Assembly (NCBI GenBank): GCA_048213135.1
Contig: PS015049.1
Coordinates: 190,422 to 234,097, forward strand
DNA: 43,676 nucleotides
Direction of reading: 5' to 3'
From: Reclinomonas americana ATCC 50394
Taxonomy: Eukaryota
The stretch's first letter is position 1; each line of letters begins with the position of its first letter. Below the pieces are notes generated by a model. The model was not told the origin of the DNA, did not search any database, and saw only the letters and a list, made by a program, of their open reading frames with translations. The position numbers and the translations under genes were made by a program. Below are positions 3,834-39,072 of this stretch, one piece after another.

Positions 3834-6800
3834 TCACTCAAACACCGTTACCGTCACCGGCAGCGTCACTGCATAATTCTCCGGTGCGTACATCTCCTCA
3901 ATCTTGGCGGCCGGCATCACAAAGTGGCCGCTGCTGGTCACGCGCACGAGGTAGCGTAGCGATGACTTGCCGGCAAACAGGCGCTGCCGTGCGTACACAA
4001 AGAAAGAGACGATGAGCAACACACATGATAGCAACAAGAAGCTATGCTTTTCCCCCCGCACCGCAGAATAGCAGAGCAAGCTCTCGTCACGCGGCATCAG
4101 CGAGCCCAGGGTGCAGAAGGGGCGGAACTCACGCTGGCGAACAACTTCGCCACCAGCCAGGTTGGGATCCACGTACTCGAAGCAAGCGGCGTAGCTTGTG
4201 AGAAAAAGAGTGGAGCGATGAGCACGTGCGCGACAAAACACTTGGATCACTGCATGGAGAGAACTCACCGATCCTGCAGACACGCGTGGTGCTTGGTGGT
4301 GCGTGTGCGCACGGTGGTCTTGATGCACACCAGCGCACCGAGTCGCACACGAATCTCACGATCGGAAACCACAATCACACTGCGCCGTTGCGTGTGTAAG
4401 TGCCAATTCCCCCGCGCCAATCACTTCCCCGCCTTCAGCAGAAACGCAACTCCTCCGCCGCGTTCACTCCCTTCACCGACCGCTCGATCACAAAGTTGCG
4501 AGACACGGCTTGCGCAGCCTCCAGCGTGCGAGCCGAGCGGAGGGAGATATCGTAGAAAACTGCGCACGCACCCCACGTGTCAGCAACACAAACACTCCCA
4601 GCGGCGGAAGCAGTAGTAGAAGCAGTCTGGCGTACCTGGCGGTCCACTGCTCTTGTGCAGCGTCAGTCGCTGACGCTCCTCGTCGAGGTCACGCGTGCGG
4701 ACCACCGCCGTCGACACGTCGCCGCCGGCCATGTCGCTCGCGACAAGCTGGCGCTGGCGGTAGTACACGGCCACAGGCGAGACACCTTCGGCGGAGACCA
4801 CCTGCGAATAGTACAGTTGCATGGCTGCGACCACGGCAGCGTTGGCCTGCGTCGTAGAAGCATGAGCATTGATATCTCCATACTTCTCTCCCTCCCCCTT
4901 CCACCTCCCTCACCTGGGTCGTGCCAAAGTGCGCGCGGGTGCTTCCCTTCAGCACGTGCTGCAGGCCCTCAGCAAGGCGGTGCTTGAGGCCCATGAGCGG
5001 CGCCAACACAGCCTGCATTCATTCATTCACGCGTTGTGTGTGTGAGACACACACTGATACCCTCCCATCATATAGATATACACACTCGTCGGTACCTTGT
5101 GCGCCCAGTCCGTGCCAGCCAGCAACTCCTCCAGCTGCACAATTGTGCGGATCATATAGGCCGACGAACGCGCGCTGTCACTGTACCACCAACAAACGCG
5201 CTTGCGTCAGCACACTCCTTGTTCGACATCGTCACCTAACAACCCGTACTCACCACAGGCACAACAACTCGGCCGCGAAGAAATTGAACTGGAGGCCAGA
5301 GCGCATCTTTGCCATGCGTCCATCGTCTTCGACACTGCACGCCGCACATTGTGAGCAACACACAAAAAGACTCGACAATTGCGACGAAAGAAAAACAAAC
5401 ATGTGCACGCACCTTTGCAGCACCAAATCCACCATGCGCCGCACCTGCTCCAGACACTTGTCGGCCGCTTCGTTGTTGCCGGCATCGCGCAGCTCAACCT
5501 CGTACTTGATGGCGGCCGGCAGCAGCAGAATCGACGAATCAATGTCCAACGTGGTGATGTCCTGCACCGGCGACGTGTGAGATGCACAGACTGTCGGAGC
5601 GAGAGAGAATACAGCGACTGACCTCCACGTCATAAAGCTCGTTCAGAAGCGGGAAAGCGGCATCGCACACTCTCCGTGCCTCCGACAACTCGGCTGCATT
5701 CTCACGCGTGTGAGCAACATACTTCATATTTAAAAAAGCATAGGGGAGCACATGGGAACATACCCGTGAGAGCAATGTGATAGAGAACGGCATGGGGCGC
5801 AGGGTGATTGATCCGACCTTCCCGGTGCACACGATGCGGGCACGCGGCCAGCACGAACTCGAGCAGCGACAGCACCTTTTGCTGCAGAGCCGGTGGCAGG
5901 TGTGCGAGCGCCACCTCCTTGACCTGCAGCAGCGCACGCGCGGCCAGCAGTGTCGGCCACGCCTGTGGCTCAGCGTCGTTGGCTTCATTCCAGAACGTCA
6001 GGCCGTTGAATGGCACACTCTGTGGGGCATCACAGGTTCATAAGTTCGCTGCAATCCTAATCGGCCCCCTTCCCCCTTCAACACTCACCCTCTTGCGAGA
6101 CTCGANNNNNNNNNNNNNNNNNNNNNNNNNNNNNNNNNNNNNNNNNNNNNNNNNNNNNNNNNNNNNNNNNNNNNNNNNNNNNNNNNNNNNNNNNNNNNNN
6201 NNNNNNNNNNNNNNNNNNNNNNNNNNNNNNNNNNNNNNNNNNNNNNNNNNNNNNNNNNNNNNNNNAAGAATGCGGGGAGAAAGCGACGAACCATCTGAAT
6301 GCGGTAGTCTGCAAGTGTGCGACCATCCTGCAACAACAAACGACGCACAGTGAATACAGCACATCAGACTTCATCAAAGGGGGGAGATTGAGACAGAAAA
6401 CACGCACCTCCAGCTGCTTGCCTGCGAAAATGAGGCGCTATGCGGAAAGACAAGAAACCAAAGAAGAGTCAGCACGCAGGCCGACTCGGGGACAACGCAC
6501 AATGCACCACACCTGCTGATCTGGCGGAATACCTTCCTTGTCTTGGATAAGGTACTTGATATCCATAATTGTGCTGACGGCGTCCACAATAATCGTGATT
6601 GTCTTGCCGGTCTGCGAGAATTTGATCAGCCTCCAGGCACTTGCGCGATCGTCGCAAAAATAATGTCGACACACTCTCTCTCTTCCCCCACCACACCCGC
6701 AACGCACCAGAGTCTTCACAAAGATTTCGAAGGACGAGCCAAACACGTACACGCGATCCACAGGTGACGGATAGAAGGCCGACAGGTAATGCTTGACTGA

Positions 6801-9800
6801 CTGCGGTGCGTCGTTGGAGATCAATCGCAACACCGCTGTCGTCAACACCAATGAGATTGAGCACCACGACTGCGATTCTTTGGAGCGCACAAATGCACAC
6901 GCACCCAGATCCACGGCCACCAGTGTCACAGAGGCGCCGGCCACCGGACGGTTGTTGGCATCCACCACACGAACCAGCGCCGACGATGCGCGTCCAGGGA
7001 CAGCAGCCTCCACAGGGAACTCAACGGTGGCCTCCAGTGTGCGCGACGCAGTGGACACCCAACGCGAGTGCGTGCTCGGACGGTTCGGCACGTCGGAGCG
7101 GACGTACACAATGTGTACCATCACGCAAGGTACCATCTGCGGCCACGATGAGTGTGAATCTCTCACGCAGTGGGTGCAGAAGCATCAATCCCTCTCTCCC
7201 CCTCTTACCTGCTCTGTCACCACAAATGGCACCTCGGTGAACTCATTTTCCAGCACCACCTGAAACGTGCACACACACACACGTGTGAGCACTCAGAAAA
7301 GCGCACGGATGGACGGGTATACACGAACCACACGCGCGTCCTCAATCATGGCGGAGCCAATCGTCACAAGCGCGACAAGTCGGCCGTCTGCGTGACGCGG
7401 AATGCGCACGGCAGCCGTGCTGCCGACGCGAAGCTGCGTGCACCAACGTTGGTGAGAGGGGTGTAATCGCACACAAAAACAGACTATCCGGCGCCACTCA
7501 CCGGCTCCTTGCCATCGTCCTCCACACCACGCTCGTCGACAATGGTCACCTTGTGCTGCGGCTGCCGAACCGGCGCGGCAACCGGCCGAGCCACATCCTC
7601 TTCCGGCCTCCGTGCCACGTAGTACGAGACGTCGGCACCGTTCCAACGGCCTGCGGCATCGCGAATGTACGCCGTGACAGTGACAGTTCCCGTTTTCTGC
7701 ATGGTGACATGCAGAGGATCTCCCTGAGAAGGAGTGGCGAGGCTCGTGAGAAACTCTCCATAGTCACAACATCTTCGGCGCGCACGGACGATACCTTGAT
7801 TGTGCCCTGCGTGTAGTAGCTGGCCACCGTGTACTGTACGAACTCGCGAGTCTGCGTCTGCTCGACGTGGTACAGCACGACAAGGTCCTCGTCGTCCACT
7901 CGCTCGCCAAGCTCGTTGACCAACACATGCGACACCGCAACTTCGTCGCCAACGTAGACGGCGTTCTTCGGCACACCCAGACCCACATAGCGAGTGGAGG
8001 GGTGAATGATGTAACTCGTCTCTGACCCCCACGTCTGCATGCTGCTGTCGGTGGCCAGCACTTGCACCTGCGCCGTGACCGGGTGCGCTGAGGTGGTCGA
8101 CCGGGCCGCCAGATCGGCACGCAGCTCTCCCTTGTCGCTGAACCTCGCGACGAACTGATCCACGTCCTCACGGAGCTCGGACAGGTCCTGCACTCCGCTC
8201 AGCGTGAAGTGGTAGTCGGCGAGCTCTGCACACACACACGCACATTCGGTCAGAAACAAGCTAACACAGAGGGACACGAGTGAAATCAGTACCCTTGTCT
8301 TTGGCGGAGAAACGGTATCGCTCGTAGGAGACAACAGTGCGCCCGAACGCATGTGCCAGCGGATCGCCCGTTTGCAACTTGGCCGTTCCGCGGAGCTTGA
8401 CTACGTCACCCACCACGCACTGGCCGGGCTCAACGGTGGCCGCAACCACGAATTCAGGCTGCACAGCAACAACAACAACAACAGCAGCAGCAAGTGAGTT
8501 GCGGAGCTATACACCTGCATGGGTTGAGCACACAATTTCCCACCTTGCGATATTGCTGTTCAGGAAAAGTGAGGAATCGAGTGAGCGGCGAATGGAGGAG
8601 CCGAGAAACAAGCAACTATAGTCAACACACACAGACCTTGACAGTAATGGTCTTATCGATTGAGTCGCCAAACGTGTCAGATCGCACCGTGATCTTGAAA
8701 TTGGGCACCATTTGACCGTCGGGCATCTGCACAGCGTCCGGCAGCACGAAACGAGACCAGAAGACACCGGTGGTCGCGTCGTACGTGACCGTGGTGTTGG
8801 TGACTCCTGCATGATTCACGGTGAGCTGCGGGCCTCGTCCTTTCCTCCTCTTCCTCTTATCGCCACTCACCGGCAATGTCCACGTGGAGAGTCAGCTTCG
8901 GATCGCAGTCGGGGATCACCAGCTGACCGTCGTGCAGATTGAGGCGCATGTCGCCGCGAACACAGACTTCCTCGCCCGAGCTGTACAGCCGGCTGTGGAT
9001 TCACAGAGCAAGAGAGAGAAGCGAGCAATGAATGTGAGTAGGCGCGCACGAGGAGGCACTGCTTGCTGTTGCACGTACCGGTCCGTCGACATGTGGAAGA
9101 GTGCGCGGCCGCCTGCCACCGGTCGCACGCCCGCCATGATAGGAACAACACCCCATCCAGTCGCGTGCCGAACGTGCACACTGTTACACGCGAACTCGTT
9201 GGCCGGAATGGTGAGCAGTCCAGCGGCGTCCGAGTGGAAAACCTACGAGCGCACAGTATGAGTACGCACGCACACGGCTCCTAAAAACAGATGCAAAAAA
9301 CAACTGCACCCTTTCTGCTGGCCTTGTGGGATCCGAGCTGTTGAGCAGCCGGAAAGTGGCGTTGACAAGCGGCTGGTTGTCACCAGTGCTGGCCGCCAGC
9401 ACAACCGTGCGGCTGTCGCACAAGAACCCGCTGCACCACACAGAAGAAATGGTCACCAGTGAGCGACGTGCTGCTGCTGAACTGCACCCACTCTCTGACG
9501 TGCGCACCAGCGGAATGATTGCACCCACACCAGTGACGTGTGGATACTCTCCACCAGAGTCAAGGAGAATTGACGGGGGTGACCAGGAGTGGGCACAAAG
9601 TGGCCCATGCGAGCGTAGTGCGGCAGGACGTTGTGGCCCATCACCGGCGCGTGCTTGAGACTGTAATGGTAGTTGGTGGAGAGGTCCCACAACGCGGGCG
9701 GCAGAGGGCGACCGATTTTGGCAGAGAGTGCCGCCAGCACATCGGGCACCGTCGTCGACTTGAGCACCGACAGCTTGACACCATCCGCCGCCGCCGCCGC

Positions 9801-12800
9801 CGCTGCCTCGTCCGCAGCATCGCCAAACACGCGCTGAGGCACACGAATGATGACAGTCATCTCCTCGTGCGCCATGCCCAGCTCCTCCACGCCGAGATTC
9901 GCTGAGAATCCCGCCGGCACCTGTGTCGACACGAGGATGAGCGCCATTGCACCGATAAAGCAACACATGCAAATGTGACAAGCGTACATTGTCACCACCG
10001 ACTGCCTCGATCAGCAGCGCCAGTGGCTGATTGCGTCCCTCGTGAGTGAACACCGAGCCGATCTTGTAGACGAAGTACTCTCCCTCTTGTTCAATCTGTC
10101 GAAATGACGAGTGAATAACACACACTGTGCGGACAGAGTGCAAGAGAGGTAGAACGCACCGCGAGCGCGGAGCGTCGGTTGGCGGCGCGCACTTTGTTTT
10201 CGTAATCGACTCGAGCCGAACTGCCACACGGCGCAAAGTGCGCGCCCACATCGTCTTCGCTCGGCTGGTACTTGAAGCAGTTGACGGCGACGATGCCTTC
10301 CACACGAATCGAGGCTTCCTCCTCTGGCGTCAGGCTCTACAAACATGCCCAGAAAAACATCGCACGTAAGCACACACACACACATACGCACACAAGGCCC
10401 ACAGGGAAGGTATGCAGACCGCAATGGATTTGCCGATCTTGCGCGGCACCGGAGCCAGCGGACACATGCCGTACCGCGAGGCAAGTCGCAGTTGCTGACC
10501 GTAGTCATCTGTGGCCGAGGCGACGGTAACCTTGTGTGCAGGCACATGCTGGTCAGTACAACGGGGAGAGCCACCGCCACGCAGACAAAGAATGTAGAGA
10601 CCAACCTTGTAGACGTCAAACGGCATGAACAAGTCTCCGAGGCGGACGGTCACATTGGAGCCCCACAACGTGAACGGACTGTCATTTTGCTGGCGGCCTC
10701 CAAAGTTGAAGCGGTCTCCCGGTTTCTCGAGTTGATCGGCCGACAGGAGTTCACCTGCAATAGGAATGAATTGCGTTGGTGGCGGTGGAAGTGACAATAC
10801 GTCAGCACCGACCGCACGTACCGCGAGTGACCGAAATGATCTTGATGTTGCGAATTTCCGCAGTGGGGTTCTGTGGTCACATGAGGGAATGGGATGAGAA
10901 GGGAGAGGAGATGAGGGAAGGCGGATATAGGACAAAGAGTGGAGAAAGAGAGCACACACAACATGCAGCAGGACTCAGAACTACGCAGAGTGAAAGTAAA
11001 CGAAGGGGAGACACCCGATCGAAAACAAGCATGATACAATGCCGACCGGCATGATCTCATTGTTACGCACCGAGAAGTTCACTTGCAAATGCGTCTGGTT
11101 CACGAACGAGACGGAGCTGAGTTCGAATGTTGGCAGAACCTGTCCGACAAACACACAGATTAGTAAGCAGCCACGAGCACACAAAAATGTGCTCGTCGTC
11201 GTACCTGGAAGTTGAAAGTGTGTTCCTGCAGCGACGGCAGTGGGCCTTCGGCCGACGGCAGTCCAGCGGCCAGCTTCACCATGACTTGGCTACCGATCGG
11301 GAGAGGCCGCGCCGGTTCAAAGTAGACGCGCTGATCGCTGTAGTCGCCACCTCCGTCGGCTGGCTCCGGCGCCGCGACTGCATCACACAACTGCATAGCG
11401 CGCATTTTTGCTAGTCAGCGGCACTCACCACAGCACCCCCTGTTCCACGAAGCACTTACATGTGTTGCGGCCTCGGCTCCATTCAGCTGCCAGAACGAGA
11501 TGCCAGGGATAATGAGCTCTCGCACAATCTGCGACGACAGTGATTTGAGTGGACGGTGGCACAATGCACGCGAATGAACGAAAGGGACAACTTGCCTGCT
11601 GATCGAACAGCAGCTCGCACCGTGGTGTCTGCGTGCGAACCACTCCCTGCGGAGCCCACGTCTGCACCTTCATGCGCGGCGTGGTGAAGCGGATGCGACG
11701 CGGGCGCCCAAGAGTCTTGCCGGTGATGGAGCGAGCATCTGCGAAGAATGGAATAGTTGGGTTGGAAAAGAGGACAGCGAACAATGGCAAGAAGCACATT
11801 GCAACTCACCCTCTGTCACCGTCACCGTCTGCAATGTACACGAAGGGATGAGTGAGTGCACAGTCTGAACGGGAGCAGGGCGACACGAGACGCAACAAAT
11901 GTCGTGGAGCCATTCAACCGCGCCGGTTTGTAGGTCACAATCTGCGGATTCTGCCACACGGTGACACCGCCAAAAAAGAACTCGGGGTTCTCGCACATGA
12001 GGAAGGCCGGCGGCTCCTCGCTCATGTCCTCCGGCGACAACTCGGTCATGGGTTGCGAGAACTCGACCACAATCTACGCAACACCACGAGTCACGACAAC
12101 AACAACAACAACGACAAAGCCGAGTCGGAGAGCACAAACCTGCGGGTCGTAGCCATTCACCACACCATTCGGTGCCACACGGGCCACCACCAGCGGCTTG
12201 TCGGCATCGTCGTCGACCGGCACCTCGTCCACAATGCCCACTGTGAATGAATGAGAAACACAGTACTCGTCTCCCTCTCTCCCACTCTGTTGACAATACA
12301 CGCAACGCTGAGTGATCTCCACGGCATCGCCGAGATCGACCGCCTCCGCCGACACCATTCCCTCTGCCACGGCTGCCGGATCAAAGTTCGCGTCCTCGCC
12401 ACTGCCGTCCTCCAGATCCATGCTCTCGCAGACTCGAGCCGCAAACGACTCGCCAGCAGCACCGTGCAGCGGAGTCGCATGATCTGCAGACGAGGAGGTC
12501 TTGAGACAAGAGAGAGAGAGACAAGAGACAGAGTGCATCCTCTTTGCGAAACTGACAGGCGCGGCCTGTGCAGCCGCATCCACTGCCTCGCCGGCCTCTC
12601 CCCTCGGCTTGAATCCAATGGACGCCGACACCAGTGCAGTGCCGCCGGGGAACGCCCACAAAGTCAGCTGCGGCGACTACATAGTAAGCACTATAAATAG
12701 ATTCGGATGATTATCATCAATGCACACACACCGTCGGCATCTCGTCGCCCTCTGTTGGGATTCCGGCCAACTGACAGATCTCTGCCAGCGACTTGCTGGT

Positions 12801-13151
12801 GTTGACCACGTGACCACCGCGCTCAGTGACGAGCACCATTGATAAATCGTCATCCGCTTGCAATTGCTCACCAGCAGCAGCAGCATCAGCGGGGACGAGG
12901 AATCGCGACAAGCCCGGGTCCTCCTCGCACACAATCGACAGCACCATTTCCAGTGGGAAGTCGGCGGGGAACTCCATGCCAGTCTGAATGGCCTCGGCTG
13001 GCTTGCCCGCAATGTTGTGCTGATGGGCGACATCTCCAACCTGCTCCTCCTCCTCTTGTTCTTCTTCGTCTCCGTCCCGCATTTGCCGGTTCACGGCAGC
13101 CACCACGGCGGGTGGCAGGAGGTCGGGCGACACGATGCGAAGGCGGATCAT
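3834..13151 (-). CDS. Bacterial-type alpha-2-macroglobulin (Ig-like N-terminal domains, MG domains, TED, MG10) with inserted ubiquitin and ubiquitin-like domains; many exons; interrupted by gap 6106-6265
   Basis: Exon fragments match bacterial A2M motifs in order: [108 protein letters not shown]...[15 protein letters not shown] (TED), [50 protein letters not shown]. The start codon is inferred. Confidence 0.88.
6106..6265. other. Assembly gap inside the A2M gene (other gaps: 228-937, 2890-2909, 3488-3731, 35839-36346, 37765-38231, 39790-40436)
   Basis: Runs of N. Confidence 1.
6292..6731 (-). other. Ubiquitin domain embedded in the alpha-2-macroglobulin (exon segments 6731-6708, 6611-6513, 6437-6408, 6327-6292; C-terminus runs into the gap)
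   Basis: Spliced translation [63 protein letters not shown]. All introns are phase 0 GT..AG. There is no initiator Met, and the first strand shares an exon with A2M sequence (AVLRLISND...VYVFGSS). Confidence 0.95.
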
Positions 13152-13525: not shown

Positions 13526-15118
13526 TCACCATTCCTCACGATTGCCAACAACAAACACCTGCATCTCGGCATCCTCCAAGATAAAGCAACGCAGCACGAA
13601 TCGCGGCAACGGCTCCATGCCAATGCCGCTGTCCTCGTCGATCTCGTCCATCTGCAGCGCCTCCACAGCCAGTTTAGCCGACTTCAACTCTCGCGCAATC
13701 AACGCCTGTTCACTCTGTTGCCCTGCAGCACGAGGCAGATGAGCAGCACCATCACCTTTGCAAGTACACACCACGCAGTACCGCACCGGCATCCCACACG
13801 CGCACTGTGCGATCCTCCGACACGCTGACAACACGACCCTGGCGCACAAACGCAACATCGGTCACGTGGCGATTGTGTCCGTGCATGGCATGCGAAATGC
13901 TCTGGAACAGGTCTCCGTGGCGAGTCCACACGCGGGCAATGTACCCTGCGGTCGTGCGCACAGTCAGCACAAAGGGCGAGAGAGTATCAACGGGGACACG
14001 CTGCGCACCTTGAATACCCAACACATGGCGGCCGTTGCGAGACACTTGCAGCGATGATGGACGGTGGCTGTGGTAACTCGACGGCTGAAACCAATCCACC
14101 AGAACCTCTCCATTCGACATGTCATACTCTGTAAAGTGCAGCCTGTGGTTCTCCCCCTCAGCGTCGACAGCCATCAGCTGGTGCGCCTCACACCCAATGG
14201 TTGTGCACGAACTGAATTGGGCCACCGTGCTGCTGACTGCGTGCACCTTCACGGCCGCGGAGTGGCCGTCGGTCTCCAGGCGCCAGAATGACAGCGTGCT
14301 CTGGTCTCCGAGCATCGCCATGAAGCGGCTGTCGGCCGATATGTGAACAGACCGCGCATTGGCAACGGACAGCTTGTACAACTCCAAGCCGTCACTCAAA
14401 CGCAGCAACGAGACGCCCTCCGCCGAGGCCACCGCAACCATGGCCAAGGTGTCGTCAGCGGGCAGCGTCAACCCGCAGGCAATCGCGTGCACTCTGCTCG
14501 GAGCCCTGGGCGTCGACCGCGCGCCGCAAGCCGGCCGCGACAGCCGCTGCACCACGTGAGTCAGCGAGGGGCAAAAAGTGAACGATTTACGTACAACGTG
14601 GTACTGTTTGAGCATACAGAAGGCACATCGTGGACGATTTCGCGACACTGACAGTCGACTGAACGTCGTTGCGGGTTTGCAGTGCGACGTTGTTGCACAT
14701 GCTCCGTGTCCACCAACCACAGACGCGCACAGTTCTCTGGATGCATGCAGCCGACCAGCAAGCGCAGCAGCTGCCCATCTCCTTGTCGGCCACTCGGAGG
14801 AGGCACAAACAGCAGGTGCGTGGCGCTGCATTCGGGATCGCGGAGCACGCCCACACGAGTCCACTCGGCGCCACTGCGCCACACAAACACATGGATGCCG
14901 TCGCCACACGAGGTCGCCATTGAGTACCCATCCGTGGAGACTGCCACGCAGCGAATGCAGTGGCGCAGCTTGCACAGCACAGTGTGTGGTGTGCGCATGT
15001 TTGTGTGAATGCGTCGTGAAGAGCAAGTCTCGTCAAAGAAGCTGTCATCGCTGTCACTTCCACCGCCACTACCATCGTCTTTCGTGGGAGCAGGTGAGCG
15101 GGAACGAGAGGCACCCAT
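13526..15118 (-). CDS. WD40-repeat protein (paralog A), possible N-myristoylation (MGASRS)
   Basis: WD-like repeats CIRCVAVSTDGYSMATSC, ARSVHISADSRFMAMLGDQSTLSFWRL and HGHNRHVTDVAFVRQGRVVSVSEDRTVRVWD. Tail exon contains EPLPRFVLRCFILEDA. The 3' end is uncertain. Confidence 0.75.
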
Positions 15119-15197
15119 GGCGCATACACTCGACCACAAGAAGCGACGGAAGAAGAGTGACTCACGTCTGTCCTTGAGCTCAGTCGTCCCCGCTGCG

Positions 15198-16697
15198 ATG
15201 AGTGCCTGTGAGCGCACGTTCTCCAGTCGCCCGGCCATCATCTCGCTCTCTGTGCACTCTGCGAGTGGACTGGTGGCGACCTCGTGCACCGATCATGTGG
15301 TGCGCCTGTACGATCTGCACAGTGGCGAGTGTGTGTGCGATCACATCGAGTCGCGCACACGTGCACTCATTGCGCAGGTGCACTTCTCGCCCGTGTCGGT
15401 GCTGAGTGGCTCCGATGTGTGGCTGGTGTGTGGCATGTTTGGGGTCATTGAGGTGTGGCATGTGATTGAGCGGCAGCAGCGACAACCGCGACTGGCGTGG
15501 ACTGTGAACGACACCGAGTCGTTTGCGGGTGTGTGCTGTCTGGCCATGACGCACGATCAGGAGCTGGTGTTTAGTGGCTCCGAGGACAATGGAGTGGTGT
15601 ATGCGTGGGCACGCGATCCGGTGGTGCGGGCGAGTGGCACGTGGATACGCACGTATGGGACCACTCGCACGGTGGGCGTGATTGAGGCCGTGTATGCACT
15701 GGCGGTGAGCCAAGACGACCGGTTACTGGTGTCGGGGACGTGCTTTGGGTCGATTGTGGTGTGGGACATTGAGTCGGGCCTCGCGGTGCGCCGCATGGAC
15801 AACAGGATTCACGTGTGGTCGCTGGCCGTCACTGAGCGCGAGCCCGACGAGTTGCTGGTGGTCAGCGCACACGACGATCAGCGGATACGCGTGTGGGAGC
15901 TGGCGACGGGCACGCAACTGAGTGAACTGTGCAGCGATAGCGAGTGGGTGTCGTCGGTGGCCATGTCGATCGATGGCACTCATGCCGCCAGTGGATCGGA
16001 AGGTATCGCAACAGAAAGGGAGACGATCAGATGTAGTTGGCTCACTCTCTTTATATGGCAGACGGCACGGTGTATGTGTGGCGGCTGAGCCCACCGGCTC
16101 AGGTGGCCGTCTTGCGCGGTCACACGAAATGCGTATGTGGCGTGGCGTTTCTGCCCGACGATCGCATCGTCAGTGCCTCGCGCGACGGCACTGCGCGACT
16201 GTGGGCGGGCGGTGCGTCCCTTGTTTGTGCTGTTATCTTGCCTTCGCCAACAATGTCTCATGCTTCCTCTCTTGTGCACTGCAGTGTGGAGCACGCGGTG
16301 GTGTGCACAGCAAGAGTGGGCCACCAGCATCCGTGCCGTGCACGCACTCCCTTCTTCCTGCGACGACAGCGGAGAACCTCTGCCACGGCTCGTACTGCGC
16401 TGCTTCTTGCTCGAGGACGCACGACTGGTGGCACTCGCGGAAGGAGGTGTGGCTGGCATTGCACACATACATCCACACACACGCTGACTGCTTGACACAG
16501 TGACCACCGAGCCGGCGATCGAAGCATCAAGGGAGGAGCTCGAGCAGGAGCTAGACGCGGCTCTGTGTCGCGAAGACGAGTGGCGTGAACGACTGCTGCT
16601 CACCGAGCGCGAGTTGGACGCCGCGCAACAACAAGTGCGCGAACTGCGCGATCAACTGGCTCGACTGCAACAATCATCATCACTAGCCACCGTGTAA
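15198..16697 (+). CDS. WD40-repeat protein with C-terminal coiled coil (paralog B)
   Basis: Multiple WD repeats (e.g. [58 protein letters not shown]). Tail [16 protein letters not shown], then a heptad-rich last exon 16500-16697. Confidence 0.85.
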
Positions 16698-17114
16698 TGT
16701 AGAGATGAATGTCACTGTATCACCATCGGCCAGCTCTGCGTCGATGCCGCCGAGGATCTCCCAGTCGCAGTCGTTGATGACCACGAGAATGCCCGGGCGA
16801 CTGATTGATGCAGTGTCAGAGCAACCAAAGATAGTCGCTCACTGCGCCCTCCCATCCCTGACTCTCTCTCTCTCTCACACACAGAGAGGGACAGGGAGGA
16901 GCACGCAACACTGTGTTGGCAGCGGCAAACAACTCGCGTCTCTCACGAATCATCACATCGCGCACATGCGCAATTAGCTGTCGAATGCCGCTCTTGCTGG
17001 CTTCTTCCTCACCACCCTCCGTCTCCAGTGTCACATCGGCCTTGGTCACACCGCCAAGAAGCAGCTCAAGACCGCCACTGAGAGAGAGAGAGAGAGAGTG
17101 AGAGAGAGACGATG

Positions 17115-17149
<35 letters not shown>

Positions 17150-17186
17150 AACGCAACACAAACTCTACGTGCAGTCGACACGGCAT
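16683..17186 (-). CDS. URM1: Ubiquitin-related modifier 1, 3 exons
   Basis: [19 protein letters not shown]...[51 protein letters not shown] carries the diagnostic Urm1 motifs and a C-terminal GG. Confidence 0.95.
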
Positions 17187-17275
17187 CTCTCTCTGTGCGT
17201 GTGCGTGTGTGTGAGTGTTGCAGTGAGTGCTTGCAATTTCGTTTTCCTTCCCGCGCGCACTTTCCCTCGCTCTGC

Positions 17276-18881
17276 ATGGCCAGCACGCGAGGGGCACTGC
17301 TCCTCTTGCTATGCACTCTCGTCTTTGTACTTCTCACGCAATGCGCACATGTGCTGAGCTTCAGCAGTGAGTGACATGCGGAAAACAAACTGCGCGCATT
17401 GATGTGTTCATGCTGACTCTTCCTTCTCTTCCTTTCCCAGTCAAGTACCGCGCATTCACCTCTGCATACGAGGAAGTGAGTTGCTGGTCCCTCTTATCCC
17501 CTTCCCCTGTGCTCTCTGTCTCTCACACGCGCGCACATGCAGAAACGACGATGTTGGTGCCCCGACGAGTCAATGCCAGTGAGTACGCGTCTGTGTGGCA
17601 ACCTCACGTGGTGCGCACTGGATCGAGAGACCGGGCGCATGCTGCTGTTCAAGTGCGTCGAGAGGGAACTGTCTGTGGCCGACATGCGGCGCTCCGGGGA
17701 GGCGTTCACCCCGATCAATGGCGCGTGGGTGCTGGCGTCGCCCGAGGAGCAGCAGCAGGCGAACGAGGTGTGTCCGTCGGTGCAAGAGAGCCTCCAAGAG
17801 TGGGTGAGTGTCGTTCTCCGAGTGGTGTTTCCCTGTGACAGGCGTGCAACTCATCGCGTGTACACAGTCGGTCGAAGATGGACACGGTTGGGTCTCTCGT
17901 CCATTCATACTCGCTCAGCGCTCTGCTCCTTCCTGACTCTCCAGCGCGCTTGCAGCCCTCAGCAATATTCCATTCATGGTATCGGCGCCGGTGTCTGTAA
18001 ACGGCGTCGTTGAGTCGGCTGTGGTGGGCTCCGGCTTAGTCACGCCGTCGTTAATGACAGACGACAGTCCGCCGCCGAGCGTTTCCTGCCTGATGATCTC
18101 GTCGCGCCCGGAGCGGCTGGCCTTTGCGGCGCGCGCCATCTACATGTACATGCAACAGTCGTATTCGGCACGAGAGCTGGTGATTGTGGTGTCGCCCGAG
18201 AGCGCACCAGGCCTCGAGCGTGTGCTGCAGGTGGTGGTGGGCGATTTCGGAAAGCAGCGTCGAGCCGGCATTCGCGTGGTGACCATGACAGATGCCAAGT
18301 CGCAGACACTTGGCGACATGCGCAACCTATCGGTGCGCGAGGCCACTGGCGACTACGTGATGGTGTGGGACGACGACGACGTGTACGACCGCGATCGCAT
18401 CCTTGTGCAACTGTCGACCGTCATCATCGTGCGCCAGTATCAAGAGTACGAGAACGGCGGCTTCCCACCACTGTCGGCCTGCCTGTTACGCCGCCAGCAG
18501 TTCATGCAGCCTCGTGTATCGCCATCACTCCACATGACCCAACACCGCGGCTGGGAGAATTCGCTGCTGTGCTTGCGCTCGCAGATGCCCACGTACCCCT
18601 CGCTGGATCGAAGAGAGGACAGAGAGGCAGTGGAGCAGCTTTGGATACAGAGTACCGTACTGGTGATTGACGCACCGACGCTGTACACGTACATGTATCA
18701 CGGTGACAACACGTGGGGCAGCGAGCACTTCTACCACATCTGGGAGAGCTCATCGGTGACCTTTGACGGTGAATCGGCGGCGCAACTGGTGGCGCAGACC
18801 CAGCGACGTGCCGGACTCGACAACGAGTGGAGAATACCCGGCGAGCTGGGGACGACAGTGGAACGACTGCTGCTGCAATGA
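17276..18881 (+). CDS. Glycosyltransferase family 2-like protein with N-terminal signal peptide/anchor (copy 1)
   Basis: Hydrophobic N-terminus MASTRGALLLLLCTLVFVLL. GT-A motifs PSVSCLMIS, QQSYSARELVIV, TLGDMRNLSVREATGDYVMVWDDDDVYDRDRI and LYTYMYHGDNTW. Confidence 0.88.
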
Positions 18882-19290: not shown

Positions 19291-20887
19291 ATGGTCAGCA
19301 CGCGAGGAGCTCTGCTCCTCCTGCAGTGCACTCTCGCGTTTGTGCTTCTCACACAATGCGCACATGTGCTGAGTTTCAGCAGTGAGTGAATGCGGAAAAC
19401 AAACTGCATTGCGTTCATGCTGACTCTTCCTTCTCTCCCTCTCCCAGCCAAATACCGCGCATTCACCTCTGCATACGAAGAAGTGAGTCACTGTTCTCTC
19501 TTATCCTCTCCCCCTGTGCTCTTTCTCACACATGCGTGCAGAAACGACGATGTTGGTGTCCCGACGAGTCCATGCCGCGGAGTACGCGTCTGTGTGGCAA
19601 CCTCACGTGGTGCGCGCTGGAGCGAGAGACCGGGCGCATGCTGCTCTTCAAGTGCGTCGAGAGGAAACTGTCGGTGGCCGACATGCGGCGCTCGCTCAAG
19701 GCGTACACGCCGATCAATGGTGCGTGGGTGCTGGCATCACCCGAGGAGCAGCAGCAGGCGAGCGAGGTATGTCCGTCGGTGCACGAGAGCCTCCAGGAGT
19801 GGGTGAGTGTCGTCCTCCGAGTCGTGTGTTCTCTGTGGCAGGCGTGCAACTCATCGCGTGTACCCAGTTGATTGAGGATGGACACGGTTGGGTCTCTTGT
19901 TCATTCGTTCTCGCTTGTCGCTCTGCTCCTTCCTGACACTCCAGCGCGCCTGCAGCCCTCGTCGACATCCCGTTCATGGTGTCGGCGCCTTTGTCTGTTG
20001 ACGGTGTTGTCGACAACGCAGTGGTGGCCTCTGGCTTTGTCACGCCGTCGTTGGAGGTCAAGACCGATGCAGACGGCAGCCCGCCGCCGAGCGTCTCCTG
20101 CCTGATGATCTCGTCGCGTCCGGAGCGGTTGGCCTTTGCGGCGCGCGCCATCTACATGTACATGCAGCAGTCGTATCCGGTACGCGAGCTGATGATCGTG
20201 GCCTCGCACGACAGTGCGCCCGGCCTGCAGCGCGTCCTGGAGGTGGTCGTCGGCGACAGCGAGCAGCAGCGACGAGCCGGCATCCGGGTGGCAGTCGCGG
20301 ATGCGACGTCGCAGACACTTGGCGACATGCGCAACCTATCGGTGCGCGAGGCCTCGGGCGACTACGTGATGGTGTGGGACGACGACGACGTGTACGACCG
20401 TGACCGCATCCTCGTGCAACTATCGACAATGATTGTCGCGCGTCGGCATCAGGAGTACGAGGAAAATGGCTTCCCGCCACTGTCGGCCAGCCTGCTGCGC
20501 CGCCTGCAGTTCGCACAGCCCCGCTTGTCGCCGTCGATACACGTGACCCACCAACGCGGCTGGGAGAATTCACTGCTGTGCTTGCGCTCGCAGATGCCCA
20601 CGTACCCCTCGCTGGATCGGAGCGAGGACAAGAGGGCAGTGGAGCAGCTAATGATGCAGAGTACCGTGCTGGTGCTAGAGGCTCCGGTACTGTACACGTA
20701 CATGTCTCACGGCGACAACACGTGGGGCAGCGAGCACTTCAGCCGCATCTGGGAGAGCTCATCGGTGACGTTTGACGGTGAATCGGCGGCGCAGCTGGTG
20801 GCGCAGACCCAACGACGTGCCGGACTCGACAGCGAGTGGAGAATACCCGGCGAGCTGGGGAAGAGCGTGGAACGTCTACTACTATAA
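19291..20887 (+). CDS. Glycosyltransferase family 2-like protein (copy 2)
   Basis: Same exon structure and motifs as 17276-18881 (MVSTRGALLL...; REASGDYVMVWDDDDVYDRDRI). The last exon is an intact ORF. Confidence 0.88.
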
Positions 20888-25800: not shown

Positions 25801-28800
25801 TGAGCACACATGCACACACATGCACACACATGTAGCACATCGAAAAATCTCACCGAATTCGAGCAACCGGGGCAACTCATTTGCAGCACGAAGCCGTCGA
25901 GTGTCGACAGTGTGGTGTTGAAGACGTCGGTGACCATCACAGCCACAGTTCGAGCCTGCGCAGCCGACGGTGGCATGGCCATCGGAGTTTCATGCACTGC
26001 CTTGGCCGTGAACGGAGCTACGCACACAACACACAACAAGTCAAGATCAAAACCCGCCACAATGTACCATTCTGCTGCACGTACGCAACATGACGCCGTG
26101 CTGTTTCCGTAGGCTGCCGAATTGCCGACAAATGTGAGGCCACGCTGCTGATCCCATATTGGTTGCCACACGACAGTGGCCAGTCGAAGCAGTTCGAGAC
26201 CATTGACGGCTCCGTCCCAGAATATGCCAGCTGTCGCGAAAACACGGATAAGAAGAATTAATCTCACTTGCACGCGCGTGCCTGCTCCGACTCTTCACAC
26301 GAACCGCCACCACCCGGAGCAATGTCGCCGTCGCTGAGGGCTGATTTGAGTGCAATGTTGTGATTGAACTGCACCGACTGGAGACTGACGCCCAGCGGAT
26401 CGGAGAAGGCAGTGGTCCGCGTTTCTGCAGTCGTCGAATCCAAGGACGCAAAATTGACGTACAGAGCCGCACCGCGACGACCATTGTTGCCATCAAACAG
26501 CGTGTTGGAAATGGACGCCGCGCCGGCCGTTATCAGGCTGATGGCGCCACCATCCTGCACGGCCGAGTTGCGAGAGAAGATCGACTGCTGAACGGAGAAT
26601 GAGGTAAAGGATGTGGCACTGATCGCACCGCCGTTGGAGCCTGTTGCAGCATTGCCGGAAAACGTTACGCCAGTCATATTGACCGCGGCCGAGTCCTGAA
26701 TCAACATGGCGCCTCCTGTCGGAGCAAAGTTGCCGACAAAGGAGCCGTCGCTAAGCGACAGCTGCACAGAATCGGCCACGTAGAGAGAGCCTCCAGAGTT
26801 GGAGGCCACATTATCCGTGCACGTGACAGTGTCGAGTAGAACTTGCGCACTGCCAGCGAGAAACGCCGAACCGCCCGAGTAGGCCGCTGACCCATATTGC
26901 AGCTGCCCCGCGAGGTGTGTTAGCAGGCATCATCAACCACGTCCCACATGGACAAACACGGATGGAGAAAAGAAACCTGGCTGAAAGCCTCCTGCCACGT
27001 CGTCAATCCGGTGGCAAACACATGACCGCCATCGGTCTGAGCCTTGTTGTCGGAGATGGTGGCCGCCGAAGAAAAGAGCCGTGCCACCTGTTGCGAGTAA
27101 ATGCCACCTCCCGCCAGCGTAGCGCTGTTGGAATCGAGAGTCACCACGAAATTGGTGACGGTGGCGGCGCCGCTCCTATGGTTCAAGCGACGCCTGGTCA
27201 GCATGCAGCGCACAATTCTCACACTTGCTCGCCGTCACGCAACAGATACATGCCACCGCCATCGGCCCGAGTGGCCACGTTGCCAGATATCAAAACGTAG
27301 TTGAAAAAGTGACTGCTTTGATCGGTGACAAACATGCCACCGCCAAAGGTGGCACGATTCTTGATAACAGACGACTGGTACCATTCCGTGATGGCGCTAA
27401 CACCCGCATAAAACCCGCCCCCAAAGCCCACAGCTGTGTTGTTGTAGACCACGGAACCGCCTTGTACCGTAAGCTGTGCCGTAGACGACATGTACAGACC
27501 GCCACCGTTACTGAAATTGGCCATATTGCTTGTCACGTTGCACGATTGAAGCGTCTTCGGGTTGCGCACAGGAAAACACACACACAAAATGAGCGGAATA
27601 ATGGACGCTCCAGGTTGACTGCAAACAAATGTAGTACGCAACTGCCTGGACCATTTGGCCAACCAGTGAGATACCGCCACCGAATTCGGCAGTGTTGAAC
27701 GACACGGTGCTGTTGATCACCGACACTCCACTCTGAGGAAGCACGACGCCGATGCCACCGCCGCTGGCCGTCATGGCAGTGTTGCCAGAGATCACTGAGC
27801 GAATGATCTTGGAAGACAGACCGGCGGCAGACACGCCACCGGCACCATTGTCGGAAAATGACAGGTTGTTGATGACATACGAGTCCATGATCGTCGAATA
27901 GAAGAGGAGGACGCCACCGCCGCTGGCCACCTGCGCGTTGACGATGTTGCCCTGAAATGTGCAGTTCATCGCCACGCTGGCTGAATCCAAAAGCAGAGCG
28001 CCTCCACCACACGCTTGACCAGCCGACACAGGCGGGGAATACAGCATCAGCACGTTGTTCGCAAACCAGCAATTGATCAGGGTCGAGTTCGTGGTGGCAA
28101 ACACCGCGCCACCACCGTTGATGGAGCCGGAATCGAAGTATATGTTGTCGTTCTTCGAAATTAAGCCTCCCTGACCAGGTTCGTGCGCCTGATTGCCCAC
28201 GAGTGTCGAATTGAGCAACTGCACCGGACCTTGGCCGATCATGATAGCGCCTGCGTTGGTACACGCAGTCGTCAAGAACACAGCTATATGTGTGCTTCGA
28301 TCATGCGAACACGAAACCTCCGCCATTGCGCTGGCTTCCACGAGCGTCCAGAACATTGTGCGCGCCACCAGAGCCTGCGCACGGTAAGAAAGAAAGATAA
28401 GTCTTCAGTGTCCCGAGATGAGAGAACGAGAGGACGCACCATCTCGAATCGACATATTTTGCGTCAGTGTGCAGTTTCGAATTATAGCAGGCGTCTGCAC
28501 ATGAACGAGGGGGAAATCAGCTTGTGCAAGCGACAGTGGAGTGGAGCTGTGTCAGAGTACACACCGTGGCGCCAGACGCGAGGAATATACCGCTGCGGTA
28601 TCACCACCGTCAGAGCGTGAGTATTACAACGCACGGGGCACAGCTGCGATGATTTGGATACATGCACATACCCGCCACCATTGTAGCCGCCGGAACTCGA
28701 GCCGAAGCGCGTGTTGTTTGCTCCGCCGGAACCATTCTCTGCCGTGTACAAGTGCGTTTCTGTGAATCACAAGCACAGCAGCGAAGGGAGACACGTGCAC

Positions 28801-35082: not shown

Positions 35083-38000
35083 TCACTTGCGGGATGAGCC
35101 ACTGAAGCTTCCACTGCCACTGCCACTGCCGCTGGCTCCGGTTTCATCGGTCCAGCCTCCGTAGTCTTGTCGGAATTCGGGATTGGCCAGCTTGTTGCGA
35201 CGCGACTCGGAGAGACGTGCTCTCTCCTGCCACGTTTCCTTCTTGAATTGCTCGCTCTTGAGCATGTCGGCCAGACGTTCCTGCGCGCCTTCCAGCTCCT
35301 GCATGGGGAAAGGGTGAGTGGAGCGTATGGAGGTAAGCTGAGGACGCGAGACGCAACACTCTGCAGGAACTCGAAAAGCTCTCGCTTGCTGTCATTCTCC
35401 TCTGTAAAAAAAAAAAATAGAATGCAACGCGCGTCAGCTCTCCCACACTAGTCGCAAGCATGGAGAGTGTGGCAAACCGTAAAAGGCATACACGTAGGAC
35501 CACTGCGTGGCGACAGAGAGAGAGAGGGAGAGTGAGCGGCAGGAGATTGTGGGGTGCGTAGAACACGAGCACACCTTCAGGGTCTTTCGACTGCGCAGCA
35601 GTGTCTTGCAAGCGTCGCGAATCAAGTCCAGGCAGATGGGGTAATCAGGAGCCGCAGGATCAAGCTGCACAAGCGGAGCGTGAGAGAAACGGCGGGGGGC
35701 GGCAGAACAGAGGAAGAAAGTGAGAACCTTGCGAGCGTGAATGTTGGCCTGCTTCTTCATGTCGGCCTCGTACTTTTCGGAGAGCTTGTGATTCATGTAG
35801 CGCTGATAAACACACAAGCGTGAGTCGACCGACACATCNNNNNNNNNNNNNNNNNNNNNNNNNNNNNNNNNNNNNNNNNNNNNNNNNNNNNNNNNNNNNN
35901 NNNNNNNNNNNNNNNNNNNNNNNNNNNNNNNNNNNNNNNNNNNNNNNNNNNNNNNNNNNNNNNNNNNNNNNNNNNNNNNNNNNNNNNNNNNNNNNNNNNN
36001 NNNNNNNNNNNNNNNNNNNNNNNNNNNNNNNNNNNNNNNNNNNNNNNNNNNNNNNNNNNNNNNNNNNNNNNNNNNNNNNNNNNNNNNNNNNNNNNNNNNN
36101 NNNNNNNNNNNNNNNNNNNNNNNNNNNNNNNNNNNNNNNNNNNNNNNNNNNNNNNNNNNNNNNNNNNNNNNNNNNNNNNNNNNNNNNNNNNNNNNNNNNN
36201 NNNNNNNNNNNNNNNNNNNNNNNNNNNNNNNNNNNNNNNNNNNNNNNNNNNNNNNNNNNNNNNNNNNNNNNNNNNNNNNNNNNNNNNNNNNNNNNNNNNN
36301 NNNNNNNNNNNNNNNNNNNNNNNNNNNNNNNNNNNNNNNNNNNNNNCTCTTCTGTCTGCTATCCTCTCACCTCTCCCACCGCGCAGCTGGCACGTTCCGC
36401 CGCGGTGCACCGGGAACCTCGGAGACCTGCATGGTATGCTTTGAGGAGCTGCCGGGTCCGGAGCTGGCGTCGCTGTCGTGCGGACACATGTTTTGTGAGA
36501 CGTGCTGGCAGGGCTTCTTGGCGGCGTCTGTGGACGAAGGTGTGTGTGTGTGTGCCCTGCGGAACGAGTGCGGATGTGCTTCTCACCCACAAGTTCGGCG
36601 CAGGTTTCGGCTGCATCCACAAGACGTGCATGCATCCGGACTGCGACGTGATTGTCGACAGCCAGGCGTGGGAGGAGCTCGGCGACGAGGCGACCGTCGA
36701 AAAGTACAAGATGTTCCTGGCTCGCTCGTTTGTGCAGGATGTTGCGTGCCCGTGGCCTCCGTTGATTTTCACCATCCCGTTGGTTAGTTTTTCTAACTTG
36801 ACGGCAGAACCCCAAACTGCGATGGTGCCCGGCGCCTGGCTGTGGCAAGGCCATTTTCGTCAGCACCACCACTCGCCTCACCGTGCGCTGCCAGTGTGGT
36901 CTCGATTTCTGGTACGCATCCAGTCTCTCGTGCCTTTTGCGTTGCCGCCGCCAACTCTTCCCCATGTCGCGCACAGTTTCCAATGCAACGATGAGGCACA
37001 CGGGCCAGCTACGTGCGAGGAAGTGAAGAGGTGGGTGAAGCGCGAGACCGACGACGGCGCAACAGCCGACTGGATGTCGGCCAACAATGTCAAGAACTGC
37101 CCGTTCTGCACGGTCAAAGTGTTCAAGGTGCGCCATTTTGTGTTTTCTCGCGTCATTCGGTCGCCGGTTACTTACTCATCACAATGCTCGTCACGCCAAC
37201 AGCAAGACGGCTGCATGAGTATGACGTGTTCGCAGTGTCGGGTGCGTTTCTCCCCTTTGTTGCTTCATGCTTCTTGTGTCGTGACTGACTGACTGACTCT
37301 TGCGTGCGCAGAAAGTTGAGCATTCCACCTGCTTTGCGTTCGGTGGTGGTGTAGAACACTCACTTTGTCGGTCTGTCTCTGACAGGAATTCTGCTGGGTG
37401 TGCCTCGGAGGTTGCGTGTGTGCCGTTGTTCTCACCACACTGTGTGAGAGATGTGTTTGTCACACGCGTTTGTTCTCTGTCACAGCTGCACACGGTCACT
37501 TCTTTGAGGAGTCAGGGTGCGCATCATCGCCCTCGTTTCCCAACTCTCTCTCGAGTTCCTGATCGCATCATACACGCACAGTTGCAACCGTTACAAGCCC
37601 AACAAGGATCCGAGGCTGAAGGAGACCAAGGAGTCGCTCGAGCGCTTCACGGTACGCGTTGTCGTCGTCATCCATTCGCTCTCTTCTCGCTCACGACTGC
37701 TCTTGCCTGCCAACCATCACGCAGCATTACTACGAGGTGAGTGGCTTTCATGTTGTTTGCGAGANNNNNNNNNNNNNNNNNNNNNNNNNNNNNNNNNNNN
37801 NNNNNNNNNNNNNNNNNNNNNNNNNNNNNNNNNNNNNNNNNNNNNNNNNNNNNNNNNNNNNNNNNNNNNNNNNNNNNNNNNNNNNNNNNNNNNNNNNNNN
37901 NNNNNNNNNNNNNNNNNNNNNNNNNNNNNNNNNNNNNNNNNNNNNNNNNNNNNNNNNNNNNNNNNNNNNNNNNNNNNNNNNNNNNNNNNNNNNNNNNNNN

Positions 38001-39021
38001 NNNNNNNNNNNNNNNNNNNNNNNNNNNNNNNNNNNNNNNNNNNNNNNNNNNNNNNNNNNNNNNNNNNNNNNNNNNNNNNNNNNNNNNNNNNNNNNNNNNN
38101 NNNNNNNNNNNNNNNNNNNNNNNNNNNNNNNNNNNNNNNNNNNNNNNNNNNNNNNNNNNNNNNNNNNNNNNNNNNNNNNNNNNNNNNNNNNNNNNNNNNN
38201 NNNNNNNNNNNNNNNNNNNNNNNNNNNNNNNGAGAAAGAGAGAGAGAGAGATAAATGAGTGGTCCCACGATTACATAACGCAGTGCGCGGGTGGCTCTCC
38301 TCTTCCGCTGCAGAAGACAGCGACTGACAGGAGAGCCTCAGGAGAGAGAGAGAGAGACAAGTGAGCGGTTACCACGATTACATAACGAAGTCCCTCTCAT
38401 TCTTCCCTCCCTCTCTGACACACTCAACTCAGCATCACACCCGCATCGGTGGCGACCTTGTCCGGATCCGCCCAGAAGTCTTCCAACAGACGATCGCCGT
38501 TCCACTTGAAGAAGCGCAACAGCGCTCCCGCCACTCCAGTCGACACTTGCAGAATGTCTTTGACTCGGAACACCTCGCGTCGCTGTGACTCCACAAGCTC
38601 CTCATCGCCGAGAACCTGACAGAGAACGAGAGAGTGTCAAGAGTCAGAGGCTGAAATACACAACCTCCATCACCACTTCTCCCTCTCTTGTCTCTCTCTC
38701 TCTCTCTCACACACACACGCACGCACACATGCACATACACACTGCCTCTCTCCACACACACACAGCACGTGAATATGCGCATGTAAGAGACAAGAGACAA
38801 GACAACAATCTCTCCCTCACACCTCCCTTCTCCCCCCCTTCTCCTCCCCTTCTCCTCTCTCTATGCTCCATGTTTACCTCAAAGCTCGGTGCCTTGTCCA
38901 CAATGCCTGGCGTGACCACAAACTCAAAGTCATCATCATGAGCGGGCTCATCATCATCGTCATCCTCCTCCTCCTCCATCATATCCTCCTCCGTTGACTC
39001 ACTGCCACCTGCACTCGACAT
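35083..39021 (-). CDS. Ariadne-family RBR E3 ubiquitin ligase (N- and C-terminal exons on -, RING1-IBR-RING2 exons on the inverted contig 36347-37764)
   Basis: Acidic N-terminus and LLRFFKWNGDRLLEDFW (38435-39021, -). RING1 CMVC...CGHMFCETCW, IBR WCPAPGC...CQCGLDF..C..EAHGPATC and RING2 NCPFC...GCMSMTC..C..EFCWVCLG (+). Ariadne domain RYMNH...RKTLK|WSYVYAFY...FEFLQS|ELE (35083-35800, -). Confidence 0.88.
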
Positions 39022-39072
39022 GGTCGCGCACACAAACAAACACACAGAGACAATGAGCTCAAGAGGACAGCT

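Follow-up and report, generated by a model that had tools for sequence, protein, structure and literature searches.

A predicted bacterial-type alpha-2-macroglobulin of Reclinomonas americana with a ubiquitin-like domain at its probable bait position

INTRODUCTION

Members of the alpha-2-macroglobulin (A2M) family fire on one cut at one place, and the occupant of that place decides who triggers them. In complement C3, C4 and C5 the corresponding point of the MG domain that carries the bait holds a globular ANA domain of ~76 residues, and a cut just C-terminal to that domain activates the protein. In ECAM (YfhM), the type I bacterial A2M of E. coli, the bait lies inside MG8, where the disordered segment Arg923-Leu942 is lost on cleavage, Arg956 docks on the C-terminal MG domain and the EXMY motif of MG10 binds the cleaved bait (Fyfe et al. 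2015, PMC4498604, in excerpt). In the superfamily the trigger is a break in the continuity of the chain within the bait, after which the stretch C-terminal to the bait withdraws from a channel (PMC9352918, in excerpt). A bait tuned to one class of protease can work, as a type II bacterial A2M whose bait was engineered to carry a TEV site traps TEV (PMC5764988, in excerpt). Here we analyzed a minus-strand gene in 43,676 nucleotides of Reclinomonas americana ATCC 50394 (GenBank assembly GCA_048213135.1, contig PS015049.1, positions 190,422 to 234,097 of the forward strand), a stretch that is called the window throughout and from whose first letter all positions are counted. This intron-rich eukaryotic gene most probably encodes a very divergent bacterial-type A2M whose bait position is taken by a ubiquitin-like domain, with the first half of the MG domain that carries the bait before it and the segment that would thread the MG ring after it.

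RESULTS

An A2M exon runs into a ubiquitin-like domain

The structure of the gene was predicted from genomic DNA with a self-trained exon chainer, and the exons around the junction, A to E, are listed in Table 1. Read on the minus strand, exon B passes from the A2M 'AVD..VL' segment into ubiquitin with neither a stop nor a Met, which confirmed the claim of an initial annotation, made from the letters alone, that ubiquitin is fused in frame within one exon of an A2M-family gene. The introns separating exons A to E are 69, 96, 75 and 80 nt long, every one of them is bounded by GT..AG, and the frame is kept through the five exons; a donor-like GTTCGT follows exon E, and a gap written as N begins 26 nt further on. 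Because the junction lies inside gap-free sequence (6266-35838) and inside a single exon, without Met or stop, an independent ubiquitin gene was ruled out. In a MAFFT alignment, all 37 bacterial A2Ms are gapped opposite the 23 codons of intron A-B, and so is P0005, a relative described below.

Four introns, all of phase 0, lie within or after the 63 codons of the ubiquitin part, so that introns are ~3 times as dense there as elsewhere in the gene, and two of the exons are micro-exons (30 and 36 nt). The GC content at third codon positions (GC3) was 0.62 in the ubiquitin part versus 0.73 in the gene, a difference that is not significant (n=63).

Splice-site scores bear on whether the ubiquitin segment is optional, in which case there would be isoforms with an altered domain or without it, an arrangement that can coexist with the other readings discussed here. 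In exon C, a further in-frame donor, GTGCGT, lies 12 nt downstream (6500-6512) and scored 7.29 versus 3.61 for the donor that preserves canonical ubiquitin, and a donor-like GTACGT at 6750 within exon B, whose use would omit the domain, scored 5.83 versus a median of 5.67 for 32 model donors; exons C, D and E (99, 30 and 36 nt) are all phase 0. However, these scores are partly circular, as the donor weight matrix was trained on the introns of the model itself, the 6750 site is phase 2 and offers no in-frame join to exons C to E, and only the canonical donor keeps the ubiquitin reading perfectly. We regard an optional segment as very unlikely.

Table 1. Features of the A2M-ubiquitin gene and of the N gap that interrupts it, in window positions
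Feature	Positions	Strand	Description and evidence
Whole gene as modelled	3834..13151	minus	Putative ATG 13151-13149; TGA 3836-3834; self-trained exon chainer
MG2-type start motif, intron-spanning	8965..9086	minus	Weak collinear profile match, columns 508-529
MG6/MG7-like exons upstream of exon A	7209..8088	minus	Within profile alignment, columns 724-1026 = model residues 1121-1432
Exon A	7136-6905	minus	MG8a-like strands ending ...VTLVAVDL; Pfam A2M_BRD, local profile, MAFFT, AlphaFold2
Intron A-B	6836..6904	minus	69 nt, in-frame, stop-free; GTGCGT..ACAG
Exon B	6835-6708	minus	
A2M part of exon B	6732..6835	minus	Lead-in to bait; profile columns 1011-1026 = ECAM 904-919
Ubiquitin-like domain, residues 1-63	6292..6731	minus	Pfam PF00240, PDB alignments
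Ubiquitin part of exon B	6731-6708	minus	FEIFVKTL; same exon as A2M part
Exon C	6611-6513	minus	33 residues, 99 nt; Ub 9-41
Exon D	6437-6408	minus	10 residues, 30 nt; Ub 42-51
Exon E	6327-6292	minus	36 nt, ends ...DYRIQM; Ub 52-63
N gap interrupting intron after exon E	6106..6265		Written as 160 N
Exon end emerging from gap	6090..6105	minus	...ESRKR; GTGAGT donor next; phase-0 join to exon at 6019
Presumed TED	4914..6019	minus	~200 residues, mostly helical-looking; position (collinearity) only
CLEQ tetrapeptide	5445..5456	minus	Context DKCLEQV; same as ECAM thioester tetrapeptide; context and position non-canonical
End of TED, CUB-b, C-terminal MG10	3837..4846	minus	Pfam bMG10, local profile

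Divergence from ubiquitin is clustered in residues 15-29

Pfam PF00240 matched the unspliced 248-aa open piece with an E value of 8.2e-6 and 25.9 bits (cut-off 25.4). In alignments to PDB sequences, identity to ubiquitin (Ub) was 22 of 33 residues for exon C (Ub 9-41), 10 of 10 for exon D (42-51) and 9 of 12 for exon E (52-63), and the KTL of exon B matches K6-T7-L8, giving 44 identical residues of 58 over Ub 6-63. The figure of 47/63 in the initial annotation is supported by these alignments over that range, and 3 of 5 matches in Ub 1-5 would account for its remaining share. The residue changes that it reported were all seen in the PDB alignments, with L8, I44 and K48 kept, K29 replaced by L and K63 by M; K6, K11, K27 and K33 are also retained, and the domain starts with Phe in place of Met.

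Of the 15 positions in Ub 15-29, 11 are changed, versus 3 of the 40 others between 9 and 63 (Fisher p = 3.2e-6), and 31 of the 34 residues of Ub 30-63 are identical. Several changes replace a polar residue by a hydrophobic one (E16I, S20V, E24M, A28Y and K29L), and on the ubiquitin structure the changed positions presumably map to the helix-1 side and not to the Leu8/Ile44 face. These data suggested that the helix-1 side is a new packing surface and that the recognition face is intact. All residues after 63, including His68 and Val70 of ubiquitin, fall in or beyond the N gap.

An AlphaFold2 model of the unspliced junction piece, computed with a 39-row alignment, had a mean pLDDT of 46.6 and was confident only in the exon-A strands (pLDDT 72-87, beta strands). 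A Foldseek search of this model against the PDB returned nothing at E <= 0.001, and all TM values were below 0.3 and thus meaningless.

The insertion probably falls within the bait of a bacterial-type A2M

Since a phmmer comparison of ECAM with the model aligned only the MG10 tail, a multi-sequence bacterial profile was built. Close relatives of ECAM retrieved by word search were 83-98% identical and useless for a profile. From 151 genomes sampled across the phylum of an enterobacterial anchor, 72 of which had a bMG10 open frame, 40 were taken, and these together with ECAM and three enterobacterial proteins made a profile of 44 bacterial A2Ms that was run over the spliced model. The upstream part aligned weakly but collinearly over ~300 columns (724-1026 versus model residues 1121-1432), with 8.8 bits for the full sequence and 10.5 bits for the domain, while none of 300 shuffles exceeded 0.9 bits. 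The six-frame piece 7549-8400 matched columns 668-798 (E 0.0014); an MG2-type motif gave a weak collinear match at columns 508-529, and equivalents of MG1 to MG5 were not individually recognised.

The upstream alignment closes against the consensus AaVDeGiLnLtdfkspdplaaff, which is equivalent to ECAM 896-919. Its last aligned residue (...SVKHYL) corresponds to ECAM 919, and ubiquitin starts 18 residues later, at ~ECAM 937; in the Pfam layout of ECAM, A2M_BRD spans 759-905 and the post-bait A2M domain, PF00207, spans 976-1057. On the unspliced exon-A piece, A2M_BRD gave a sub-threshold match over profile positions 64-136 of 140 (E 0.009) that ends at ...VAVD, and the D of AVD was the only invariant column, in the same register, among 39 sequences aligned with MAFFT (37 bacterial A2Ms, P0005 and the present gene). 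The ubiquitin-like domain stands where the family normally has a disordered, broadly protease-sensitive bait, and the earlier placement of ubiquitin at the bait-region position held, the insertion at ~ECAM 937 being within the bait, Arg923-Leu942, and after the AVDxxVL segment.

A domain at this position might never be cut. It could be an integral ubiquitin-like domain that stays in place as a module for docking, for example of ubiquitin-binding receptors, the proteasome or an E3, or that structurally replaces the bait loop, with no activation through it. This would suit a domain that is embedded without a Met, is remodelled on one face and, having lost K29 and K63, is not one from which normal ubiquitin could come; insertions are tolerated in the bait loop, and the ubiquitin tail lies beyond the sequenced part. 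On the other hand, integral ubiquitin-like domains are usually far more diverged than 31 of 34 residues over Ub 30-63, and the insert sits exactly where cleavage drives the mechanism of the family. We therefore consider a non-cleaved domain somewhat unlikely.

The downstream half ends in CUB-b and MG10

The part of the gene model before the gap comprises 31 exons from the putative ATG to 6292 and encodes 1444 aa, with the ubiquitin-like domain beginning at model residue 1382; the part after it comprises the exon end (...ESRKR) and 12 further exons (at least 13 in all), encoding 436 aa down to the TGA. All 43 modelled exons are open, and the median intron of the modelled gene is 71 nt. The two most upstream exons of a first model were dropped, as they resemble the neighbouring WD40 gene, and the N-terminal end at ATG 13151-13149 was inferred. 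By eye, the N-terminus and the very acidic stretch that follows it look unlike a classical signal peptide; no lipobox or clear signal peptide was found in the acidic N-terminus. Cysteines are scarce (19 in 1948 modelled residues).

After the gap, Pfam bMG10 matched with an E value of 2.9e-10 and 40.9 bits (cut-off 26.2). The local profile matched the downstream part with an E value of 7.6e-18, residues 204-434 of the downstream model being collinear with ECAM 1402-1650. RDES (4091-4080) stands at the position of the RDDR motif and EEMY (3899-3888) at that of EXMY.

By profile collinearity, approximately ECAM 956-1199 is missing between the two halves, ~240 aa that would cover the bait end, the remainder of MG8 (MG8b) and then MG9, CUB-a and the thioester site; profile columns 1063-1300 gave no signal in the 1086 six-frame open pieces of the window, nor in Pfam scans. 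To go by the order of parts in the family, all of these, preceded by the ubiquitin tail, are expected in the gap. The initial annotation had proposed to close the gap in order to see LRGG, and the ubiquitin tail would fall there, but so would the ~240 missing A2M residues.

The downstream half contains a CLEQ tetrapeptide. The motif P[YF]xCxEQ is present in 41 of 44 bacterial A2Ms, while here only DKCLEQ is found, without P[YF]x; the distance from CLEQ to MG10 is ~172 aa versus 318 in ECAM, about 150 residues too close, and pairwise tests of thioester placement gave z ~0. The chance expectation of C.EQ in 436 residues is, as a rough estimate, 0.02. Because it lacks the P[YF]x context and is too near MG10, this CLEQ is probably fortuitous, and a canonical thioester site would fall in the gap.

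If the gap were truly ~160 nt, the gene would encode a remnant or re-purposed A2M in which ubiquitin is followed almost directly by a helical domain; without MG8b, MG9, CUB-a and probably the thioester, it would no longer be a trap. The gap is written as 160 N in a window whose gaps are individually sized, columns 1063-1300 are without profile signal, and the TED-like part is unrecognisable. Yet CUB-b and an MG10 with its bait/TED-binding motif are kept and score well, one CUB half without its partner is structurally unlikely, and the modelled exons are all open. A remnant is in our judgement quite unlikely. The seven gaps of the window all differ in length, which suggests that their sizes are estimates, and an under-sized gap is favoured over a loss of parts because CUB-b and MG10 are kept.

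The two halves could also have been brought together by a chimeric contig or a scaffold mis-join at the gap, or could belong to two genes, with an A2M-ubiquitin gene ending in the gap apart from a TED-MG10 gene. The N gap is the only link between them, a look for sequencing runs covering 6266-12700 listed none, and no annotated protein for the locus was present in the searched collections. Against this, the A2M-ubiquitin junction is in gap-free sequence inside one exon, and the ubiquitin-like exons are diverged and split by unique introns, unlike a collapsed polyubiquitin repeat; no second ubiquitin-like copy was found in the window and no repeats at the edges of the gap. Both halves are A2M parts, on the same strand and in the right order, and the exon end leaves the gap in the right phase. 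We regard an artefact or a pair of genes as very unlikely.

A fragment points to the gene family in a second organism

A word-based search of the junction piece against proteins of 435-2000 aa found no relative. Annotated relatives longer than 2000 aa were covered only by an exhaustive HMMER search with the A2M-only part against 1.84 billion representatives, which gave 11 matches at E <= 0.001, none below 1e-10. Ten of these were scanned (P0007, of 6890 aa, was left out), and eight proved to be Ig-like repeat proteins and one an ADGRF3_N repeat protein, while P0005 matched no family. P0005, a singleton fragment of 98 aa from a 737-bp contig, is the only detectable relative of the junction region among those representatives. 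Over the full length of exon A it is 42% identical, and it departs from the alignment at the same exon boundary, where its open reading frame reads into an intron, and so it comes from a related, intron-bearing organism. To judge from this fragment, which stops before the ubiquitin junction, the gene family is present in a second organism.

Scans of metagenome DNA with a single sequence and with alignment A1 yielded no relative, and the ESM Atlas returned bacterial A2M_BRD clusters only, at 0.80, which we treat as a lead. Full-text literature searches retrieved no paper in which a macroglobulin or a thioester protein is linked to a ubiquitin domain embedded in it or to the trapping of deubiquitinases, and in a term search of a 2026 review of A2M evolution the word ubiquitin was absent.

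Neighbouring genes

The window is GC-rich, eukaryotic DNA. Its core has 52-62% GC, and positions 1-2000 and 36000-42000 have 32-47% and many N gaps. Pfam scans indicated that the other genes around the A2M-ubiquitin gene are ordinary nuclear genes; the best matches of one of them, TFIIH Ssl1, are only 41-50% identical, and the source lineage is therefore poorly sampled. The same-strand gene upstream (WD40) terminates with a stop at 13528-13526. WD40 matches were seen on the minus strand (13755-15032) as well as on the plus strand (15009-16500), and two WD40-gene pieces, 13557-13699 (-) and 16362-16427 (+), form an inverted similar pair (68% over 25 aa) flanking the region.

A second ubiquitin-family gene lies near the fusion, namely that of the ubiquitin-related modifier Urm1 (16686-17300, minus strand), ~3.5 kb upstream of the A2M start; its last exon matched Pfam PF09138 with an E value of 2.6e-16, and the product ends ...TFISTLHGG. 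Its place beside the A2M-ubiquitin fusion is probably a coincidence. A tandem pair of ~2-kb units follows, at 17937-18878 (+) and 19937-20884 (+), each with a weak match to glycosyltransferase family 2, and the opposite-strand open reading frames of these units are likewise repeated. Chlamydia-type polymorphic membrane protein (PMP) repeats were found in this eukaryotic scaffold at 26267-27234 (-), with PF02415 E values of 3.5e-7 and 7.9e-5. They sit in a stretch from 22 to 35 kb in which open pieces are numerous on the minus strand and Pfam matches nothing else, and which is possibly one large gene.

DISCUSSION

The most economical reading of this architecture is that the ubiquitin-like domain is a bait that would be cleaved by ubiquitin-specific proteases; we find it plausible and put its probability at roughly 0.4. 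Under this proposal the Ile44-face half, being near-identical to ubiquitin, would still be recognised by ubiquitin-specific proteases, and the remodelled helix-1 side would probably pack against the A2M body. A cut at the ubiquitin-like domain's C-terminal end would then break the chain and set off a conformational change of the A2M/C3 type. Observations in favour of a cleavable bait include that EEMY is kept at the EXMY position, that the changes from ubiquitin are clustered and that the insertion lies inside the bait.

Several points weigh against a bait of this kind. Cleavability and trap competence are not visible, as the sequenced part of the window does not include ubiquitin's GG tail, the MG domains after the bait, CUB-a or the thioester, and the ~240 residues required (>1 kb with introns) contrast with a gap of 160 N; were the gap truly small, the protein would lack half of the trap. 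The presumed TED was unmatched by Pfam or by the local profile, and its pairwise comparison with the TED of ECAM gave z ~0. Use of the higher-scoring donor of exon C would add VWCI between Q41 and R42, in strand 3 of ubiquitin. The bait loop is the most insertion-tolerant site of the family, and position alone is no proof of function. Among the sequences searched, no ortholog with a ubiquitin insert was found, the sole relative, P0005, ending before the junction. Finally, housekeeping deubiquitinases cut exposed ubiquitin-GG-X fusions in the cytosol, so a trap for foreign deubiquitinases would fire constitutively unless its site were shielded or altered.

This last point is a difficulty for any version in which the protein senses deubiquitinases of pathogens, and it had not been raised in the initial annotation. 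A constitutive maturation cut by housekeeping deubiquitinases is as likely as a regulated trap trigger of the pathogen-sensing kind. A further, speculative possibility, which we hold to be distinctly improbable, is an intracellular complement-like surveillance protein with a ubiquitin trigger. In such a protein a cut after the embedded ubiquitin, for example by a virus-encoded deubiquitinase or one injected by an intracellular bacterium, would break the chain, and the A2M would collapse round the protease and, if a thioester is present, bind it covalently. It would act as a suicide trap or an alarm, in which the remodelled back face would keep the enzymes of the cell itself off the site.

If the domain is indeed a cleaved bait, a near-canonical ubiquitin at the bait would link protease trapping and complement with ubiquitin signalling. 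The protein would be a natural thioester or cage protein aimed at ubiquitin-specific proteases, and no dedicated protein inhibitor of this kind was present in the literature searched. The solution found in C3, in which the activating cut falls immediately behind a small folded domain, would then have arisen a second time with a different fold. The gene also documents that an intron-rich A2M of bacterial type has long been resident in a eukaryotic lineage that is poorly sampled.

Among described systems, the type I bacterial A2Ms (ECAM of E. coli and Sa-A2M of Salmonella) share with the present protein the MG array, AVDxGxL before the bait, CUB-b and a bacterial-type MG10 with EXMY. In contrast to these, the present gene is eukaryotic, has at least 43 exons and encodes an acidic N-terminus without a lipobox. 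Relative to ECAM the protein is ~480 residues longer before the bait (model residue 1382 versus ECAM 905-923) and has a folded ubiquitin-like domain in place of the disordered bait, with the thioester, MG9 and CUB-a lying beyond the sequenced part. The type II A2M MagD of P. aeruginosa offers a model in case the present protein lacks CxEQ, as a protease-specific bait can spring such a trap without a thioester (PMC5764988, in excerpt), although MagD is periplasmic, has operon partners and uses a disordered loop as bait.

Ubiquitin fusion precursors, such as polyubiquitin and the ubiquitin-ribosomal protein fusions, and integral ubiquitin-like domains likewise have a ubiquitin fold peptide-bonded to another protein. 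In the precursors, however, ubiquitin is N-terminal and near-invariant, while the present domain is internal, begins with Phe, lacks K29 and K63 and is remodelled on the helix-1 side; the integral domains, as a general rule, are much more diverged from ubiquitin than the present one. With complement C3, C4 and C5 the protein shares the position and size of the inserted domain, which is an analogy of mechanism and not membership, since the insert is ubiquitin-like and the C-terminal domain is of the bacterial MG10 type, both of which place the protein outside the C3-like class. The ANA domain is a helical bundle unrelated to ubiquitin, and C3 is secreted, disulfide-rich and cut by a dedicated convertase; in C3 the cut frees the segment that threads the MG ring (see also PMC9352918).

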